64,000 nt of DNA from Nitrospirales bacterium (GTDB lineage: Bacteria; Nitrospirota; Nitrospiria; Nitrospirales; UBA8639): the NCBI GenBank assembly GCA_963555755.3, contig OY820905.2, positions 4,384,001 to 4,448,000 on the forward strand, written 5' to 3'. Positions 1 to 11,906 of the stretch are shown here, in pieces. The position numbers were made by a program, and so were the translations under genes. Position 1 is the stretch's first letter. Each line of letters starts with the position of its first letter. The notes beneath the pieces are model-generated. The model searched no databases. It worked only from the letters and a program-made list of their open reading frames with translations, and was not told where the DNA came from.

Positions 1-545
1 GCCCAATAGCGAACCGCTGTACCGTCTCGTCACCACGCTGCTGGATGACCAAGGCGCACCCGCCCAGGACCTGGCTCAACTGTATCACGAGCGCTGGGAG
101 GTGGAATTGGTGTTTGATGAGCTGAAGACGCACCTGGGGCAACGTCGTCGCGTCCTGCGCAGTAAAACGCCAGAGTTGGTGCGTCAAGAGTTCTACGGAT
201 GGGTGATGGCCCACTACGCCGTGCGCTGGTTGATGTATCAAGGGGCCACCCAGGCAGACATCCCGGACCGCACAGTATCTTTTACGGCCACGGTGCAGTT
301 AGTGCGTCGAACCCTGCCCCAATCTGGGGCCCTTCCCCCCTGAGCGCCAAAAAACATGGTATCGGCTGCTGTTTGAGGCGACGGCAAAACTGTTGTGTGA
401 ATCCAGCCGGGGAAAAATCAAGCCGAGGATGGTGAAACGCCGAAACTCTCCATACGCACCGTACAAACGCCCGAGACCGCCCGTTGCGCAAATGGACTGG
501 ACACCATCCATCAAACCACCGAAGATATCTAAGTGAACAGTATTG
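1..545 (+). mobile_element. IS4-family insertion sequence, 3' part (truncated by window start)
   Basis: Near-identical to the reverse complement of 2542-4010; ends in terminal IR ATCTAAGTGAACAGTATTG (527-545); encodes the YHERWEVELVFDELK DDE motif. Confidence 0.95.
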
Positions 546-569
546 GGTCAGGTCTAACATTAATACATG
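546..569. repeat. REP-like sequence (GGTCAGGTCT.ACATT..TACA) upstream of RAYT; IS4 target
   Basis: Same sequence at 4011-4034; inverted partners TGTAGGAATGT.AGA.C.GACCC at ~745-767, ~951-975 and ~4116-4140. Confidence 0.8.
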
Positions 570-587
570 CCCTGTTGTACTCAAGCC

Positions 588-950
588 ATGGCCAGACCGT
601 TACGACTGGAATTTGCGGGTGCGGTGTATCATGTCACCGCAAGAGGAGATAGGCGCGAGGTCATCTCTCGGGCTGCTGACAATAGAGAACACGGGCTGGA
701 AGTCTTTGCCAGCGTCTGTGAAAGTTTCAACTGGGTCATGCAGGTGTAGGAATGTGAGACCCGACCCAATACTCCGGACCCTTGTCATTGGATGAATATC
801 ACCGACGCTCTCAGAGGAGATAATGAAGCGATGGCCAGGCTTATCTATCAGGGGCTTACACGATGGCGGAGATCGGCGGTCATTTTGGTCTACACTACTA
901 TATGACGGTGAGTCGAGCCGTGCAACAATTTGAAGGAACACAGCATCCCA
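588..950 (+). pseudogene. REP-associated tyrosine transposase (RAYT/Y1) remnant
   Basis: N-terminus MARPLRLEFAGAVYHVTARGDRRE (588-749); C-terminal HTH-like fragment YTMAEIGGHFGLHYYMTVSRAVQQFE (~857-940); the middle is missing and a REP sits at the break. Confidence 0.85.
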
Positions 951-1131
951 TGTAGGAATGTTAGAACTGACCCCCAACCTGCTATGGTCGGTTCTGACCA
1001 TGGTAATTTGCTTGTCGCTACCCTTTAGTATAGATGTAGGTTATTGTAGAAGTTCATTGAGTTTTCTCCTTTTTTGGTTTAGCCGCCTTCCAGTATAGCT
1101 GATATGGCTAAGCTGGGGGAGAAGGCTCAAT

Positions 1132-1200
1132 GAGTATCAAAGCAATGAACAGGGATTTTTCAAGCTACGCTTTCAAAATCCGTTATTGCGGTCGTTATGT
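1132..1200 (+). other. attC-like integron recombination site
   Basis: Imperfect palindrome GCAATGAAC/GTTATTGC, GGATTTT/AAAATCC, AAGC-TAC-GCTT ending in core GTTATGT (1194-1200); left core degenerate. Confidence 0.65.
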
Positions 1201-1225
1201 GTACACTAGGCTTAAAATGAAAGTA

Positions 1226-2237
1226 TATGCCTTCCCATTTGACTAAGGTTAGTCCCTAGACTAGTCTGCTGGACTATGGACACAGGGTATGCTGCTGATA
1301 TCTTGGATTTTTCTGTTAGGTTCCACACCGAAGAAGCGTGCTTCGAGTACTTGCGGGCGATTCGGTGGCCAGACGGGTTTATGTGTCCAGCTTGCGGTCA
1401 TCGCGGTGGTTGGTGGCTCAAAAAATATTTCCGGTTTGAGTGTTCGTCGTGTCATAGACAGACATCACCGCTAAGCGGCACAGTGATGCATAGATCGCAC
1501 TTGCCGCTACGGCTTTGGTTTTGGGCTGCCTATTTCGTCTCCACGCACACACCTGGCATCAGTGCTGTGCAATTGCAGCGTCAACTCAGTATCAAGAAGG
1601 TGGATAGCGCCTGGTATTTGCTCCACAGATTGCGACGAGGAATGGTACGACAGAACCGTGAACGGCTCGCAGGAACAGTTGAAGCCGATGAAACCCATAT
1701 CGGTGGACCGGTAAAAGGCAAAACGGGCCGTGGCGTCGCGAAAGCGAAAACCAAGACGTTAATAGCCGGAGCCGTAGAAATTGTCACGTACACACAAGGG
1801 GATCACTTTCGAGAGAAAGCAGGGCGTTTACGATTAGCGATTCTTCAAGACGCTGGAGAGAACGAGATCAAAGCATTCCTCAATAGCCATGTCGCTGAGG
1901 GCAGTAAGATCAAGTCCGATGGTTGGAAGGGATACTCGGCAAAAGCCTTGGCAGGATACGAACACCTGAGACGGACCCAGGGTGACCCAGCAAGTGCTGG
2001 GAAGCACGCTCCACACATCCATAGAGCGTTCGGCAATCTGCAGACCTGGCTGAACGGGATTCACCATGGAGTGGATTCAAAATACCTGCAACACTATCTT
2101 GATGAGTTTGTCTTTCGCTATAACCGCCGTGAGACTCCAATGAGTACCTTCCAGAGTTTGTTGAAAATCCTGACCAGCAGCTCAAAACCCTTGGGATTCA
2201 ATAAACTGAAGCAACCTTAGTTAAATGGGAAGGCATA
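1226..2237 (+). mobile_element. IS1595-family insertion sequence (ISSod11-like ends)
   Basis: IRs TATGCCTTCCCATTTGACTAAGGTT / AACCTTAGTTAAATGGGAAGGCATA; 8-bp TSD TGAAAGTA (1218-1225, 2238-2245). Confidence 0.92.
1276..2220 (+). CDS. IS1595-family transposase
   Basis: Zn ribbon CPAC...CSSC, VEADET, KSDGW and YLDEFVFRYNRR motifs. Confidence 0.95.
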   Translation: MDTGYAADILDFSVRFHTEEACFEYLRAIRWPDGFMCPACGHRGGWWLKKYFRFECSSCHRQTSPLSGTVMHRSHLPLRLWFWAAYFVSTHTPGISAVQLQRQLSIKKVDSAWYLLHRLRRGMVRQNRERLAGTVEADETHIGGPVKGKTGRGVAKAKTKTLIAGAVEIVTYTQGDHFREKAGRLRLAILQDAGENEIKAFLNSHVAEGSKIKSDGWKGYSAKALAGYEHLRRTQGDPASAGKHAPHIHRAFGNLQTWLNGIHHGVDSKYLQHYLDEFVFRYNRRETPMSTFQSLLKILTSSSKPLGFNKLKQP

Positions 2238-2491
2238 TGAAAGTATATATATTTGCAGCTTTATTTGGATTATTTGTAACTTTTTTGGGTCTTTTTGCAG
2301 GGCTACAACTATCTCCAATTCTGGGGAATATATTAGCCTTCCCGTTTGTCATATCCGCGATTATTACTGGTACTGGCGTTTTCACTTATTCTAGAAGTGT
2401 ATTTCTTGGTCTATTTTTATTTACTAGTTTGTTTTGGGCCGCAATATTTATTCTAATAATAAAACTCAAAACTATATTTTTTCACAATTAA
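2237..2491 (+). CDS. small hydrophobic membrane protein (cassette-like, AT-rich)
   Basis: 84-aa ORF MKVYIFAALF... with about three hydrophobic segments; lies between GTTATGT and ACATAAC. Confidence 0.65.
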   Translation: MKVYIFAALFGLFVTFLGLFAGLQLSPILGNILAFPFVISAIITGTGVFTYSRSVFLGLFLFTSLFWAAIFILIIKLKTIFFHN

Positions 2492-2541
2492 CAATGTTTA
2501 AACATAACAAGAATCCGGGGTTAGGGTCTGGGGTCAGGTCT

Positions 2542-4010
2542 CAATACTGTTCACTTAGATATCTTCGGTGGTTTGATGGATGGTGTCCAGTCAATTTGCG
2601 CAACGGGCGGTCTCGGACGTTTGTACGGTGCGTATGGAGAGTTTCGGCGTTTCACCATCCTCGGCTTGATTTTTCCACGACTGGATTCACACAACAGTTT
2701 CGCCGTCGCCTCAAACAGCAGCCGATACCATGTTTTTTGGCGCTCAGGGGGGAAGGGCCCCAGATTGGGGCAGGGTTCGACGCACTAACTGCACCGTGGC
2801 CGTAAAAGATACCGTGCGGTCAGGGATGTCTGCCTGGGTGGCCCCTTGATACATCAACCAGCGCACGGCGTAGTGGGCCATCACCCATCCGTAGAACTCT
2901 TGACGCACCAACTCTGGCGTTTTACTGCGCAGGACGCGACGACGTTGCCTCAGGTGCGTCTTCAGCTCATCAAACACCAATTCCACCTCCCAGCGCTCGT
3001 GATACAGTTGAGCCAGGTCCTGGGCGGGTGCGCCTTGGTCATCCAGCAGCGTGGTGACGAGACGGTACAGCGGTTCGCTATTGGGCCCCTGCGGTAAGAC
3101 ATACTCAATCACCCTGATGGCGATCCCATCAATTCGCTTTCTTCTGGCGCGTTCACTGGGATACAGATGGCTCAGGTACGAGCCATCGTCCAACAGCTTG
3201 TCAACTGGAAGGATCAAGCTCTTCGGCATGCGCCAGAGTAGTTGCGCTCCGGTCTGAAGGCCGGCCTGCCAATGGGCGTACCCGACAAAGCCGCGATCGG
3301 CCATGCAGAGCATGTCGGGCGTGAGGCGACGCACCAAGGGCGCGGCCACCTCCCATTCGGCCTGCTTATAGGCCCCTAGTTCGGCATCCAAAATGGCGTG
3401 ACTGGCACATTCCGTCAAAATGGCGCACTGGGCTTGGGGGTAGCCGGCCTGCCCGGTTCGGCTCCCTGGGTACCCAAAGGCTTGCACATTGGCTTCCTCA
3501 TCCGGGACCTCAAAGTTGGAGCCATCTATCGCGACGAGTCGGTAGCCTGCAAAAAAGGCGTGGGCATGCTCTGGACGAGCCAACGGGCGCAAGCAGCGCT
3601 GTCCAATGGCTTTCAGCGCCTTCCACGTCAGCCGTGAGCGGGCTTTGCTGATGGCTGATTTGACAACGGTCACGGGAGCAACGGGTTTGTGGTCTTTCCA
3701 TGCCAGCCCTTGGGCCACAGCGGCAAACACCGCTTCGTACGCGGCCTCGCTGTATAAGCTCAACGCCATGGTGTAGTACACCACGGCAGAAGCGGGAAAG
3801 GTGCGGACACGTTCACTGTTACAATGATGTGCGTCAAGTTCTTCGTTGATGATGGCCACCGGAAAGGCACGAGCCAGTAATCCCGTGCTCAAATAATCCG
3901 CCAATCGAGCCCCCGCCCCCAAGCCGACTTTCTTTCTTGCCATGTTGCCTCCTCCCAGATTACGTGTGGAGGCGAAGTATAACAGATTTTCATCTAAGTG
4001 AACAGTATTG
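2542..4010 (-). mobile_element. IS4-family insertion sequence, complete
   Basis: IRs CAATACTGTTCACTTAGAT / ATCTAAGTGAACAGTATTG; 10-bp TSD GGTCAGGTCT (2532-2541, 4011-4020). Confidence 0.97.
2744..3943 (-). CDS. IS4-family transposase
   Basis: LVAIDGS, MADRGF and YHERWEVE..FDELK motifs; a C-terminal extension lies in the +1 frame. Confidence 0.95.
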   Translation of the reverse strand: MARKKVGLGAGARLADYLSTGLLARAFPVAIINEELDAHHCNSERVRTFPASAVVYYTMALSLYSEAAYEAVFAAVAQGLAWKDHKPVAPVTVVKSAISKARSRLTWKALKAIGQRCLRPLARPEHAHAFFAGYRLVAIDGSNFEVPDEEANVQAFGYPGSRTGQAGYPQAQCAILTECASHAILDAELGAYKQAEWEVAAPLVRRLTPDMLCMADRGFVGYAHWQAGLQTGAQLLWRMPKSLILPVDKLLDDGSYLSHLYPSERARRKRIDGIAIRVIEYVLPQGPNSEPLYRLVTTLLDDQGAPAQDLAQLYHERWEVELVFDELKTHLRQRRRVLRSKTPELVRQEFYGWVMAHYAVRWLMYQGATQADIPDRTVSFTATVQLVRRTLPQSGALPP

Positions 4011-4177
4011 GGTCAGGTCTCACATTCCTACATGCCCTGTTGTACTCAAGCCATGGCCAGCAAATTCCAGCCGTAACAGCAAATTCCAGCCGTAAAGGTT
4101 TTGCCAAGCAAAGCATGTAGGAATGTGAGAACTGACCCCTCCACAGAACTGACCCCACCACCCACCATGACCAGCAC

Positions 4178-5110
4178 CTAAAATATTGATAATTTCGTTC
4201 TGGTCGTTAAAAATTCAAGAATTTTCATGCCTTTATACGAGTTGCCTTTGGCATTTAATTTTGGGCTCCAAACCGCAATACTAAAGTGCCCGGGGTAAAT
4301 AGCGATAATCCCACCGCCGACTCCACTTTTTCCCGGCAATCCCACCTTAAAGGAAAACTCTCCGGCTTCGTCATAAAACCCGCAGAGTTGCATAATGGCA
4401 TTGATCCGCTTGGATTTACTCACATTCACCACGCGTTCATGGGTGAGTGGATGAACCCCCTTGGCGGCAAGAAACAAAAACCCTTGAGCTAATTCCTTAC
4501 ATGTCATTTCAATGGAGCAGAGATGGAAATATAAGTCTAAAACGATCTCGATATCATTGTGAATATTGCCAAAGGTCTTCATTAAATTAATGAGGGCCGC
4601 GTTGGTATAGCCCGTTAATTTTTCTGATTCAGCAACCCGGGGGCAGTAATCTATCGTGGGATTCCCGGATACCTTTCTCGTGAATTCAAGAAATTCTTGT
4701 TTAGGGTGTTGCAGGCGGCTTACCAGAATATCGCAAAGGACCAAGGCGCCCGCATTGATGAACGGGTTACGAGGAATTCCCTTTTCATATTCTAATTGAA
4801 CCAATGAATTAAACGGGGTGCCGGAGGGTTCCACCCCGACTCTCTCCCACAAAAAATCATCTTCCAATTCAAAGGCTAAGACCAAGGATAATACTTTGGA
4901 AATACTTTGAATCGAAAATTTATCATTGGAATCGCCCAAGCTATAATTCTGATTATCGATGGTGGTCAGATGAATGCCAAATTTCTTGGGATCCACATTT
5001 CGTAATTCAGGGATATAGGAAGCCAGATGGCCGATGTCTTTCAAGTGTCGTAATTCGATCGCCATGTCCGAAAATAGTTTTTTATAATCCAGACCCTGAT
5101 CGGATTTCAT
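4178..5110 (-). CDS. glsA: glutaminase
   Basis: YIPEL, FSIQSISK, NPFINAGA and VGLPGKSGVGGGI motifs. Confidence 0.95.
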   Translation of the reverse strand: MKSDQGLDYKKLFSDMAIELRHLKDIGHLASYIPELRNVDPKKFGIHLTTIDNQNYSLGDSNDKFSIQSISKVLSLVLAFELEDDFLWERVGVEPSGTPFNSLVQLEYEKGIPRNPFINAGALVLCDILVSRLQHPKQEFLEFTRKVSGNPTIDYCPRVAESEKLTGYTNAALINLMKTFGNIHNDIEIVLDLYFHLCSIEMTCKELAQGFLFLAAKGVHPLTHERVVNVSKSKRINAIMQLCGFYDEAGEFSFKVGLPGKSGVGGGIIAIYPGHFSIAVWSPKLNAKGNSYKGMKILEFLTTRTKLSIF

Positions 5111-6904: not shown

Positions 6905-7112
6905 GGTTCAGAGTTAATGAGTGACTGGTTCACGGTTTAGGGTAGACAGAGGAAGCCAAAAGGGTTTGGAACTATGTATTCGTGGCAAAAAGGCTATAAA
7001 AAAACCCAAGAAAGCCAACCCCGAACCCCGAACTTTGAACCCCGAACCCTGAACCCTGAACCCTTAACCTTGAACCCTGAACCCTGAACCCTGAACCTTG
7101 AACCTTGACCCT
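6905..7112. repeat. degenerate heptamer tandem array (AACCCTG/AACCCCG/AACCTTG) with a short inverted partner
   Basis: About 13 units at 7017-7112; GGTTCA/GGTTTAGGG units at 6905-6942. Confidence 0.9.
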
Positions 7113-7171
7113 AAGCAATTAAGTTTTTTGTTTATCCTCACCTCCTACTTTTTACCAAGGATTGCGCAATC

Positions 7172-9587: not shown

Positions 9588-9751
9588 GAGTTTTGTGTCT
9601 CCCTGCCTTGTGCTCGCACGATGGGCTGGGCAATTTTTAGGTGGCTCTTTGCCTAATTGTGCGGGTACTTTTTTTTGAAGATTCCCACTCAACTTCCCCT
9701 TTCCCAAAGGGGGAGATATACAATACCCTCTCACCAATGCTTCTCCTTGAA

Positions 9752-11506
9752 CCTAGAAACCGCAGTTGGATCACAAAAGTCCGCGCAAGCTCTTAGGACC
9801 TGCGAGAAAATAACTTGATCAATCTCGCATCCAATCTTCGGGCCATCTTTGAACGGGCCTCAATCGAAAAACCCTCACCATAGCTGTGCTATGCCTCGAG
9901 TGTTTCGGATCATACAGAAATTATGGTTCTAGGAGTCGCATTCGGATCAATTGCCCAATGAGTGGCGTGAAGCTCAATCCTCGTTTTTCGAGTCCCGGCC
10001 ATTGCCGGTAGCCAAAGACAAAAGGCTCTTCGCGTCACCGGGAGGGTGAATGGGTTGAATAATTCCCCGCCTGTTCCCCCCTTGGGAAAAGGGGGGCTTG
10101 GGGGGATTTTCTGATCCGGAGCAGGCAAGTTCTGCACATTTCTTGCCTCCCACAAAGCGGGTTCCCCCGGCGTGGCTGCCGATCCAACCGAAGGGGCAAA
10201 GCGGGTGCCGGCACCAACGGCCCCCATCCTGACTCGGGGGCGGCCCTAGTCGCTCAGACAGTGCAAGCTTGGTGTGTGAGGGTATGGTTATCGTAAAATC
10301 CCCCCTCCCCCCCTTTTCCAAAGGGGGAGCCTCCCGAGCACCGCTTCCCAAGGGATGTTCTTCCATCACCTGCAGAGGAGAATCTGGCCAACCGACCGAT
10401 ACGGATTGATGAAGCCCCAGAAAAATCTAGAAACCCGGATGGCTCGCCCATGAGCTCCCTGGGGGTCTAGTGGCCACAGATGGGTCCTCTATTATTGGCA
10501 CGGGGTTCCTACAAAATTCATAGAGAACCATAAATTCTGTATGATCCAGTGTTTCCCAATCGTTCCGTCCAAATCCGACCCAAATCTTGGCGCGATATTG
10601 ATCAAGTTATTTTCTCGCAGGTCCTCAGGGTCCGTCACGAAATAACCGGGACAATTGGCCGAGACGATTTTGGAGCGAGCCAAGGAGCGAAGAGCGCGCA
10701 TACCGGGAGTATGGAAGCGATGAGCGACGCCGGCGCAGCCCAAAAGCGTCCGGCCCTCCGGGGAGGCCCATCTTTGGCCCGGGGCGGCGTTGCTCCTCGG
10801 TCACAGAGCCCCGCTAGGCTCCCTCGTCGCGCCTTGCCCCGATCACAAATCTGGGCCTCCCAATTGTCCCGGTTATTTCGTGACGGACCCTTAGCGCACC
10901 TGGCAAAATAAAAAATGTCTTATCACCACCAGGGATTACCCCCCACTCTTGTCATTTCGGGAATAAATGCCAAAAAGTGTTGGGAAAGTTACAAGGAAGT
11001 TCTTCGGTGACAACACGTTACCCTAGAAACGGCAGTTGGGCGCAAAAAAGCCGTGTAAGCTATTGGTGTGCATGGTGAAATAAAAAAAGTCGCAGTCACC
11101 TTCGTGGTGATGGGACATTTTTTTATTTTGCCAGGTGCGCCAAGAGCTTGCGCGGACTTTTGTGATCCAACTGCCGTTTCTAGGGTTACGCATCTTTGTG
11201 TTGAAAGGGTTTAACAAAGGGATGCGGTGATGAGAAAGATGACAGGTGCCTCTCACGCCAAAGTCTCATGAAGACGGCTCCTAATGCGTATTCTCGATGG
11301 TATGAGTATCTCCAACCAAGATTAAAAACCAACACTATTTGGCATTTATTCCCATTTCGACCCTTGGGAGAAATCTGTGGTTCGGCAGAAGGGAGATTTC
11401 TCCCAAGGGTCGAAATGACAGACCCGAGGTGACCACGACTTTTTTTATTTCACCATGCACACCAATAGCTTACACGGCTTTTTTGCGCCCAACTGCCGTT
11501 TCTAGG
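9752..11506. mobile_element. nested MITE stack B[C[N], D, I[J[B]]]
   Basis: Outer B flanked by TTGAA/TTAAA; C 9796-10624; N 9907-10547 (8-bp TSD AGTGTTTC); D 10628-10890; I ~10950-11420; J 10959-11353 (TSD ATTTC); inner B 11022-11184 (TSD GTTAC). Confidence 0.85.
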
Positions 11507-11569
11507 TTAAAGCGTTGAGTGAGGCGGAATATTCGTCAGGGGGGCAGGACCGGGGTGATCAGAATGGCC

Positions 11570-11906
11570 TATTGAATAATAGGCAAATCTTAAAAATTCC
11601 GTTCACCTGTGACTTATCTTATGAAATGCCGAGAGCAACAGGGGATGTTCAAAAAGGTGCGCTCAGCCAGATGGTCTCCAGGCTTCCCATCTGACTTTCC
11701 CAGGGGCTCTGCCCCTAGGACGGCCCAAACAGCAGGGCCTGTGACCCCTCGAAGGGGGAACACCCCCTTCGAACATCCCCCCCACCGAGTGGTACTGACT
11801 ACTCGGTGGGCAAGGCCGCAGGCGCTTTGGCGCGCGGAGCGTACGGGCGAGTACGTGAGCACGACAAAGGGCCGAGAACGCCGCTGACGCCCTTTTTCAA
11901 CATCCC
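11570..11906 (+). mobile_element. long-form MITE A carrying a multi-hairpin insert
   Basis: A leader plus A core interrupted at CAGC^AAGG by about 140 bp (11668-11810). Confidence 0.75.

Follow-up and report, generated by a model that had tools for sequence, protein, structure and literature searches.

A broken integron gene cassette between two defective TIRtrons in a Nitrospirales genome

Results and discussion

A decayed array scrap bordered by TIR ends

Analysis of a 64,000-nt stretch of the genome of a Nitrospirales bacterium (hereafter the window, beginning at C1:4384001 of genome G000) revealed a genuine integron gene cassette that is now broken. It lies between two defective TIRtrons in a scrap of a decayed array, which comprises this one real cassette and the broken attC of the cassette that preceded it. 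The most probable explanation, in our assessment, is that the scrap was trimmed by the joining of TIR ends, which probably took place without any specific aim at attC sites. A preliminary description had read the region as a cassette without integrase set between repeats of the Y1/HUH transposase family; this arrangement is upheld, but the bordering repeats are TIRtron ends and not the RAYT-associated REPs that it named. The features in question, in window coordinates, are as follows:

1..545, plus strand: IS4-family element (subgroup IS4-type ends), 3' part, interrupting the left TIR of TIRtron remnant A, with a 10-bp duplication (546-555)
546..567, plus strand: left TIR of remnant A, inner part, with the outer part ahead of the window at C1:4383065
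588..734, plus strand: TIRYT Y1 transposase, N-terminal remnant (59% match to an intact relative) that has lost the HUH motif and the region of the catalytic Tyr
745..767, minus strand: internal TIR at a deletion joint within the TIRYT gene
836..898, plus strand: TIRYT C-terminus, helix-turn-helix remnant (71% over 21 aa)
951..974, minus strand: right TIR of remnant A (previously called a REP at 951-975)
980..1139, minus strand: IS1111-type attC-inserting element (IS110 family), remnant of its left end, from DNA matches, with the transposase start codon at 1057 and the element end at 1139
1140..1200, plus strand: attC1 without R'' core, i.e. remainder of the spacer, L'', stem, L' and R' GTTATGT
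1226..2237, plus strand: IS1595-family element of 1,012 bp with an ISXO2-like transposase (1276-2220); 8-bp duplication at 1218-1225 and 2238-2245
2237..2491, plus strand: cassette ORF, 84 aa, frame intact, no Pfam family
2502..2515, plus strand: attC2 stub, i.e. R'' ACATAAC, 5-nt spacer and 2 nt of L''
2516..2541, plus strand: partial tandem unit and outer left TIR of TIRtron remnant B
2542..4010, minus strand: complete IS4-family element in the left TIR of remnant B; 10-bp duplication at 2532-2541 and 4011-4020
4011..4156, plus strand: miniature TIRtron remnant B with inner left TIR (4011-4032), first TIRYT codons, right TIR and tandem unit
4116..4139, minus strand: right TIR of remnant B, followed by a partial tandem unit to 4156

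The motif positions given previously (GTTATGT at 1194-1200, ACATAAC at 2502-2508, TGA at 1131-1133, the G-rich run at 2517-2541 and the repeat at 951-975) are all correct.

Identity of the cassette and of its attC sites

The sequence at 1132-1200 folds on the bottom strand (z -3.3, equalled by 0 of 200 shuffles) and its boxes are arranged with the spacing typical of attC sites, with a 5-nt spacer, L'' AATGAACA, L' CGTTATT, a 6-nt spacer and R'. This site, attC1, belongs to the lost upstream cassette. The description of an attC followed by an ORF had the order right, but the two become contiguous only upon removal of the 1,012-bp IS1595 element, which sits at the start of the cassette ORF and separates it from its upstream DNA. 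With this element removed, the ATG is placed 16 nt past R' and the complementary R'' 10 nt past the stop codon, so that a single ORF fills the interval between the two cores. The probability of an ACATAAC occurring by chance within 30 nt of an ORF stop is about 0.002. The ORF has 31% GC and encodes a strongly hydrophobic product (mean hydropathy 1.6); a Pfam search of it recovered no family, and an Atlas search recovered only unnamed hydrophobic look-alikes, all under the recognition threshold.

A database search recovered four relatives of the ORF. In a metagenome locus, L036, the same ORF (88% aa identity) is flanked by two whole attC sites; a search for it in real integrons had been proposed previously. 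The attC downstream of the ORF in this locus is a whole site of 89 bp whose first 14 nt are those of window 2502-2515; hence the ACATAAC is indeed the start of the cassette's own attC, as previously read, and attC2 is a true truncation. The attC upstream of the ORF in L036 is whole and different from attC1, i.e. the cassette there has another neighbor. That neighboring cassette (L036:231-767) contains what we take, from inspection by eye, to be a decayed HigB/HigA-type toxin-antitoxin pair. Two further relatives of the ORF, L037:1786-2037 (68%) and L039:950-1177 (42%), lie in loci in neither of which an attC was found, and may point to an origin or destination of the gene outside cassettes.

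A complete foldable attC is found on neither side of the window ORF, as attC2 is reduced to 14 nt and attC1 has no R''; because neither site is complete the cassette would at present be immobile. An attC covariance model that we built from 11 training sites, including both L036 sites, is insensitive and matched only the attC2 stub in the window (E 0.011) while missing attC1; its scores for the L036 sites follow by construction from their presence in the training set. An alternative identity of window 2488-2516 on the minus strand as an attI, proposed on account of 12 nt common with the putative resident attI, was rejected, since L036 shows this stretch to be an ORF end followed by an attC.

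The distant integrase and the resident integron

A search for intI within the 64,000-nt window recovered none, in keeping with the earlier remark that no integrase is in view. A full integron integrase of this genome is encoded at C1:318997 (405 bits), millions of bases from the window, in a resident integron with eight attC-like sites at 310-339 kb. In this integron (C1:310126-339523) intI lies on the same strand as the downstream attC sites, and two C-terminal intI fragments (C1:325317 and 332481) are each followed by a similar putative attI-like stretch. Elsewhere on C1, the grammar scan alone, and not the covariance model, detected two similar attC-like hairpins at 686494-686588 and 2927408-2927500, the latter adjoining a tyrosine recombinase gene. 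The distant location of intI and the absence of the block at the corresponding site in relatives (see below) rule out a resident integron at the window site.

An IS1111-type element accounts for the damage to attC1

Positions 1026-1157 match the DNA of 12 plasmid records, and in 9 of these the match falls at a gene annotated as an IS110-family transposase. Two of the records that were fetched carry a transposase annotation; there the gene is on the minus strand, and its first codons survive in the window from position 1057. In silico excision of the element restored an attC in all four plasmid records that were fetched, with the insertion point placed right after R'' and an A; in the window the same element end occurs at 1139 and is followed by the remainder of the attC in the same register. 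Thus, attC1 is without R'' because an attC-targeting IS1111-type element inserted there. The intact plasmid relatives encode an IS110-family DEDD transposase with a non-coding region of 463 and 567 bp downstream of it, and use one fixed insertion point at one end of attC. This agrees with the long non-coding region downstream of the transposase that is described for the IS1111-type layout and with the targeting of one end of attC sites by ISKpn4 and ISPst6 (PMC11187229). Of the window copy, in contrast, no more than about 160 bp at the left end remain, with only about 10 transposase codons still recognizable, and its likeness to the group is drawn from the layout of the intact relatives and from the insertion point.

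Most of the IS1111-type element would later have been lost up to the TIR at 951-974. The insertion replaces a reading in which the attC1 core was lost through point mutation. What had been described as an upstream ORF fragment stopping at attC1 is actually the start of the IS110-family element on the minus strand; the frame ending in the TGA at 1131 is open for 16 codons only, and an upstream cassette ORF was rejected on this ground.

The bordering repeats are the TIRs of TIRtrons

TIRtrons have terminal inverted repeats with a GGGGWSAS motif (Di Nocera et al. 2013, PMC3733652), and their transposases, the TIRYTs, constitute subclass 2.1 of TnpA-Y1 (Quentin et al. 2018, PMC6006769). In the window GGGGTCAG repeats, the tip of which fits the GGGGWSAS motif, point inward around both TIRYT remnants. 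The intact relative L149 combines a PF01797 domain with HTH_28, and the window remnants match its N- and C-terminal ends; its residues 61-257 have no match in the window, i.e. the HUH and Tyr catalytic motifs are gone from this copy. Thus, the Y1 transposase with a C-terminal HTH, the GGGGWSAS TIRs and the dispersed TIR copies are all shared with TIRtrons of subclass 2.1, from which both window copies differ in being internally deleted. The REPtrons, whose RAYTs (PMC8266576) belong to the same superfamily of related Y1/HUH transposases, have REPs that are tagged hairpins, whereas the window repeats do not fold (z 0.42 and 0.25) and lack a GTAG/CGTC tag. This rules out a REP or REPtron identity, and the repeats can no longer be called RAYT-associated REPs. 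The same correction applies to the claim that such a repeat cuts attC2: the junction is real, with the G-rich run 8 nt past the core, but the repeat is a TIR of a TIRtron.

Defective element A (546-974) has a second copy at C1:1019751-1020180 (93% over 434 nt) with different flanks, apart from 5 nt beyond the TIR at 951-974 that are common to both, and three near-identical TIRYTs of 329 aa are encoded at different loci of the genome. These observations suggest that such elements are likely to move as units. An intact TIRYT gene of the window's own family was not found in G000.

Short tandem units outside the TIRs accompany 57 of 127 TIR matches as opposed to 34 of 2,389 control GGGTCA sites (1.4%), in a count that covers mostly units of 11-13 nt and in which stacked units may be counted more than once. 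The units consist of about 5 flanking bases and the first 7-8 bases of the TIR and precede the TIR tip, as at C1:226568-226631, C1:2166703 and window 2516-2529 and 4140-4156. They could possibly be the footprint of staggered nicks by the transposase. Together with the second copy of element A and the three dispersed TIRYTs, they mark the TIR ends as sites of activity. Neither these outer units nor the targeting by IS4 elements (see below) is among the features described in the portions of the TIRtron papers (PMC3733652, PMC6006769) available to us.

Insertion sequences in the cassette and in the TIRs

The IS1595 element encodes a transposase with PF12762 and PF12760 domains and is present in 36 full copies in the genome, 32 of which retain the 8-bp duplication. 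The left TIRs of remnants A and B are both interrupted by an IS4-family element that occurs in 21 copies in the genome, in either orientation and all with a 10-bp duplication, and that was not found in 200 other genomes of the phylum. Its Nterm_IS4 DDE transposase, -AATR--------WTW ends and duplication within the 10-13 bp range place it in the IS4 subgroup (end pattern in Table 1 of PMC2266710). The duplication is exactly GGTCAGGTCT in 15 of the 21 copies and within one mismatch of it in 19, and 10-mers of this type are occupied by IS4 in 14 of 22 cases in a TIR context versus 1 of 12 elsewhere. The element thus resembles repeat-targeting IS4 elements like ISRm22, which inserts into Sinorhizobium REPs at a fixed position with a duplication of about 10 bp (PMC1525189, PMC2266710), except that the target in G000 is a TIRtron end. 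A deletion of attC2 made by the IS4 element was rejected: the junction lies 26 nt outside IS4, and attC2 is also cut in two related loci (L034 and L035) devoid of any IS4.

History of the locus

The cassette block occupies the interval between uppS and tldD, which measures about 9.6 kb in G000. This interval is 240-365 bp in three (G001, G003, G004) of the four same-genus genomes with both genes on one contig, and in the fourth (G002) unrelated inserts make up about 3 kb; G005 and G006 have contigs that end before tldD. The block is thus an island and not a resident integron, and is absent at this site in the relatives. A glutaminase gene at window 4178-5110 is located away from both tldD and uppS in the three relatives with a close homolog, indicating that it is also part of the inserted block. 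Other repeats occur in this neighborhood: about 4 kb before the window (L028:7930-8730) about five tandem 159-bp units lie beside uppS and are followed by an IS6-family remnant; a 7-nt tandem repeat is found between the tldD and pmbA-like genes (window 7003-7121); and window 9746-11900 is densely packed with MITE-like inverted repeats.

The loci L034 and L035 represent this same locus in related DNA, syntenic with the window on the glutaminase side. In both, attC2 breaks off after 15 nt and gives way to 21 foreign nt and then to the TIR, beyond which lies an extra inverted TIRYT fragment absent from the window; both the IS1595 and the IS4 elements are missing. Given that attC2 is cut elsewhere in these loci, the window junction is a later or parallel event, and the differing cut points would fit a series of deletions starting at TIR ends. 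At the window junction (2507-2520) the TIR is preceded by nine bases that recur unchanged at C1:1886621-1886634, where a TIR truncates a TIRYT gene. The last five of these bases resemble a flank common in this TIR family, so that a microhomology of 4 nt might have directed where attC2 was cut. The assembly is supported by contigs of four sequencing runs, those of two runs covering 940-1228 and 2237-2553 without differences.

Do TIR ends favor attC sites?

One alternative is that the TIRYTs of this family favor folded or single-stranded attC sites, or their vicinity, when joining TIR ends, and thereby prune and terminate arrays. We regard this as unlikely, although several observations point in its direction. 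A weight matrix derived from 31 attC left arms was applied to 193 TIR outer ends, and the top of these was a locus of a relative (L197 from G005), in which the R'', spacer and L'' of another attC lead directly into a TIR of the window's family. This end scored 13.6 bits, compared with 8.8 for the window, and a score of 12 is reached by 0.035% of random 45-mers. The left arm in L197 matches an attC family, the other occurrences of which score as attC in four of four cases. Accordingly, 2 of 22 ends of family A abut an attC left arm, one of them being the window, i.e. the discovery case, and the other L197. Three further integrase-less arrays stop within about 150-220 bp of a TIR. One, at C1:3977748, is among the two other model-confirmed integrase-less attC loci of G000; a TIR of the same family is situated about 155 bp beyond its end, in a genome of which 2.4% is 500 bp or less from a TIR. 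The others are the 2 of 27 attC loci of relatives with a downstream TIR and a TIRYT piece. L197 and these three arrays together are more than blind erosion would readily give, and to that extent count against erosion.

Against a preference stand the broader surveys. The RYYYAAC core occurs within 44 nt outside 4 of the 112 TIR ends of G000 versus 3.5 in shuffles, so that the anticipated genome-wide enrichment of cores at repeat junctions did not materialize. None of the 171 TIR ends of other families convincingly abuts an attC arm, and none of the eight attC sites of the resident integron lies within 20 kb of a TIR. The attC model detected no site in either of two sets of TIRYT loci, one of 30 taken as best matches from 62 selected genomes and one of 29 taken from 251 genomes for their closeness to the window's TIRYT family. 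The sets have three loci in common, reach 1.5 kb from the N-terminal match and sample one phylum in which integrons are scarce; under default filters 30 control loci with IS256 likewise yielded none. A grammar scan, which recovered 18 of 27 positive-control loci, gave weak attC hits in 1 of the 30, 0 of the 29 and 2 of the 30 IS256 loci, respectively. One TIRYT match, L066, was dropped, as it aligned to a read-through part of the query outside the TIRYT. Searches for TIRYT relatives recovered only two in plasmids and none in viral contigs; a loose core-plus-TIR pattern matched 78 stretches (64 distinct) of the viral contigs, which are chance-like in appearance. Moreover, both cases from the relatives' attC loci come from one genome (G008), and the TIR cut points at 14, 15 and 21 nt into the site differ from each other, unlike the fixed position of the IS1111-type insertions, which implies that any preference for attC would be regional rather than site-specific.

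A composite element, in which the two TIRtrons captured a piece of an array and moved it to this site, appears less probable still. TIR ends do form both borders of the scrap, the relatives are without the block at this site and defective TIRtrons appear to move as units, all of which speaks for such capture. However, no second location of a TIR-cassette-TIR unit was detected (L034 and L035 being the same locus); the cassette is single in G000 and was not found in five same-genus genomes; the inner junctions vary between strains, as fits erosion; the upstream attC holds an IS1111 remnant, so that no whole cassette or attC would have been carried; and no joints were seen in the contigs of four runs. 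The proposal of the preliminary description that a RAYT/REP system captures or moves cassettes is therefore not borne out, there being no RYYYAAC enrichment, no attC near the TIRYT genes in the two sets of loci from the phylum and no second unit. What survives of it is that TIR ends border the scrap on both sides and that the same family cuts a different attC in one relative. Overall, these comparisons provide weak grounds for thinking that TIR ends might seek or carry integron cassettes.

A scenario for the origin of the scrap

We accordingly return to the erosion of an array piece by the joining of TIR ends as the favored reading. Its parts are observed, namely the identity of the cassette, the IS1111-type end in attC1, the IS insertions, the TIR borders, the other cut point and the relatives without the block; from these we infer the following order of events. 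The IS1111-type element would have entered behind the R'' core of attC1 while the site was part of an integron elsewhere. A piece with at least two cassettes would then have reached the uppS-tldD interval by a conventional route, either inside a larger mobile block or through integrase-driven insertion at a secondary site. TIRtrons probably settled on either side of it, and repeated joining of TIR ends, likely catalyzed in trans by intact TIRYTs that the genome encodes, would have produced inward deletions that took away the greater part of both the IS1111 element and attC2. The bursts of IS1595 and IS4 elements would have arrived last.

The locus is comparable to the CALINs and SALINs, with which it shares cassette DNA and attC remains far from intI in a genome with an integron elsewhere, and for which transposon-mediated rearrangement and insertion at secondary sites are proposed as origins (10.1101/2022.09.11.507474). 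It differs from them in that both attC sites are broken, on account of which a standard attC model may miss it, and in that its borders are TIRtron ends, which go unmentioned in the accessible text of that study.

Implications

Under this reading the locus has reached an ordinary kind of end point, namely that of a dead cassette within an insertion hotspot, and is unusual chiefly in its layering, with four types of elements in 4 kb. A bolder proposition, which we consider doubtful, is that the TIRYTs of this family join their end repeats by preference into folded attC arms, making TIRtrons a further class of attC-directed elements that prune arrays, can bracket and relocate cassettes without an integrase and thereby help create integrase-less arrays. 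Literature listings and abstracts yielded no link between TIRtrons and attC, and the word integron is absent from the main texts of PMC3733652 and PMC6006769. If TIRtron ends did prefer attC sites, for which this locus offers weak support, this would provide a target for a family of Y1 transposases described from sequence alone (PMC3733652, PMC6006769), and an integrase-independent route to many of the small integrase-less arrays.
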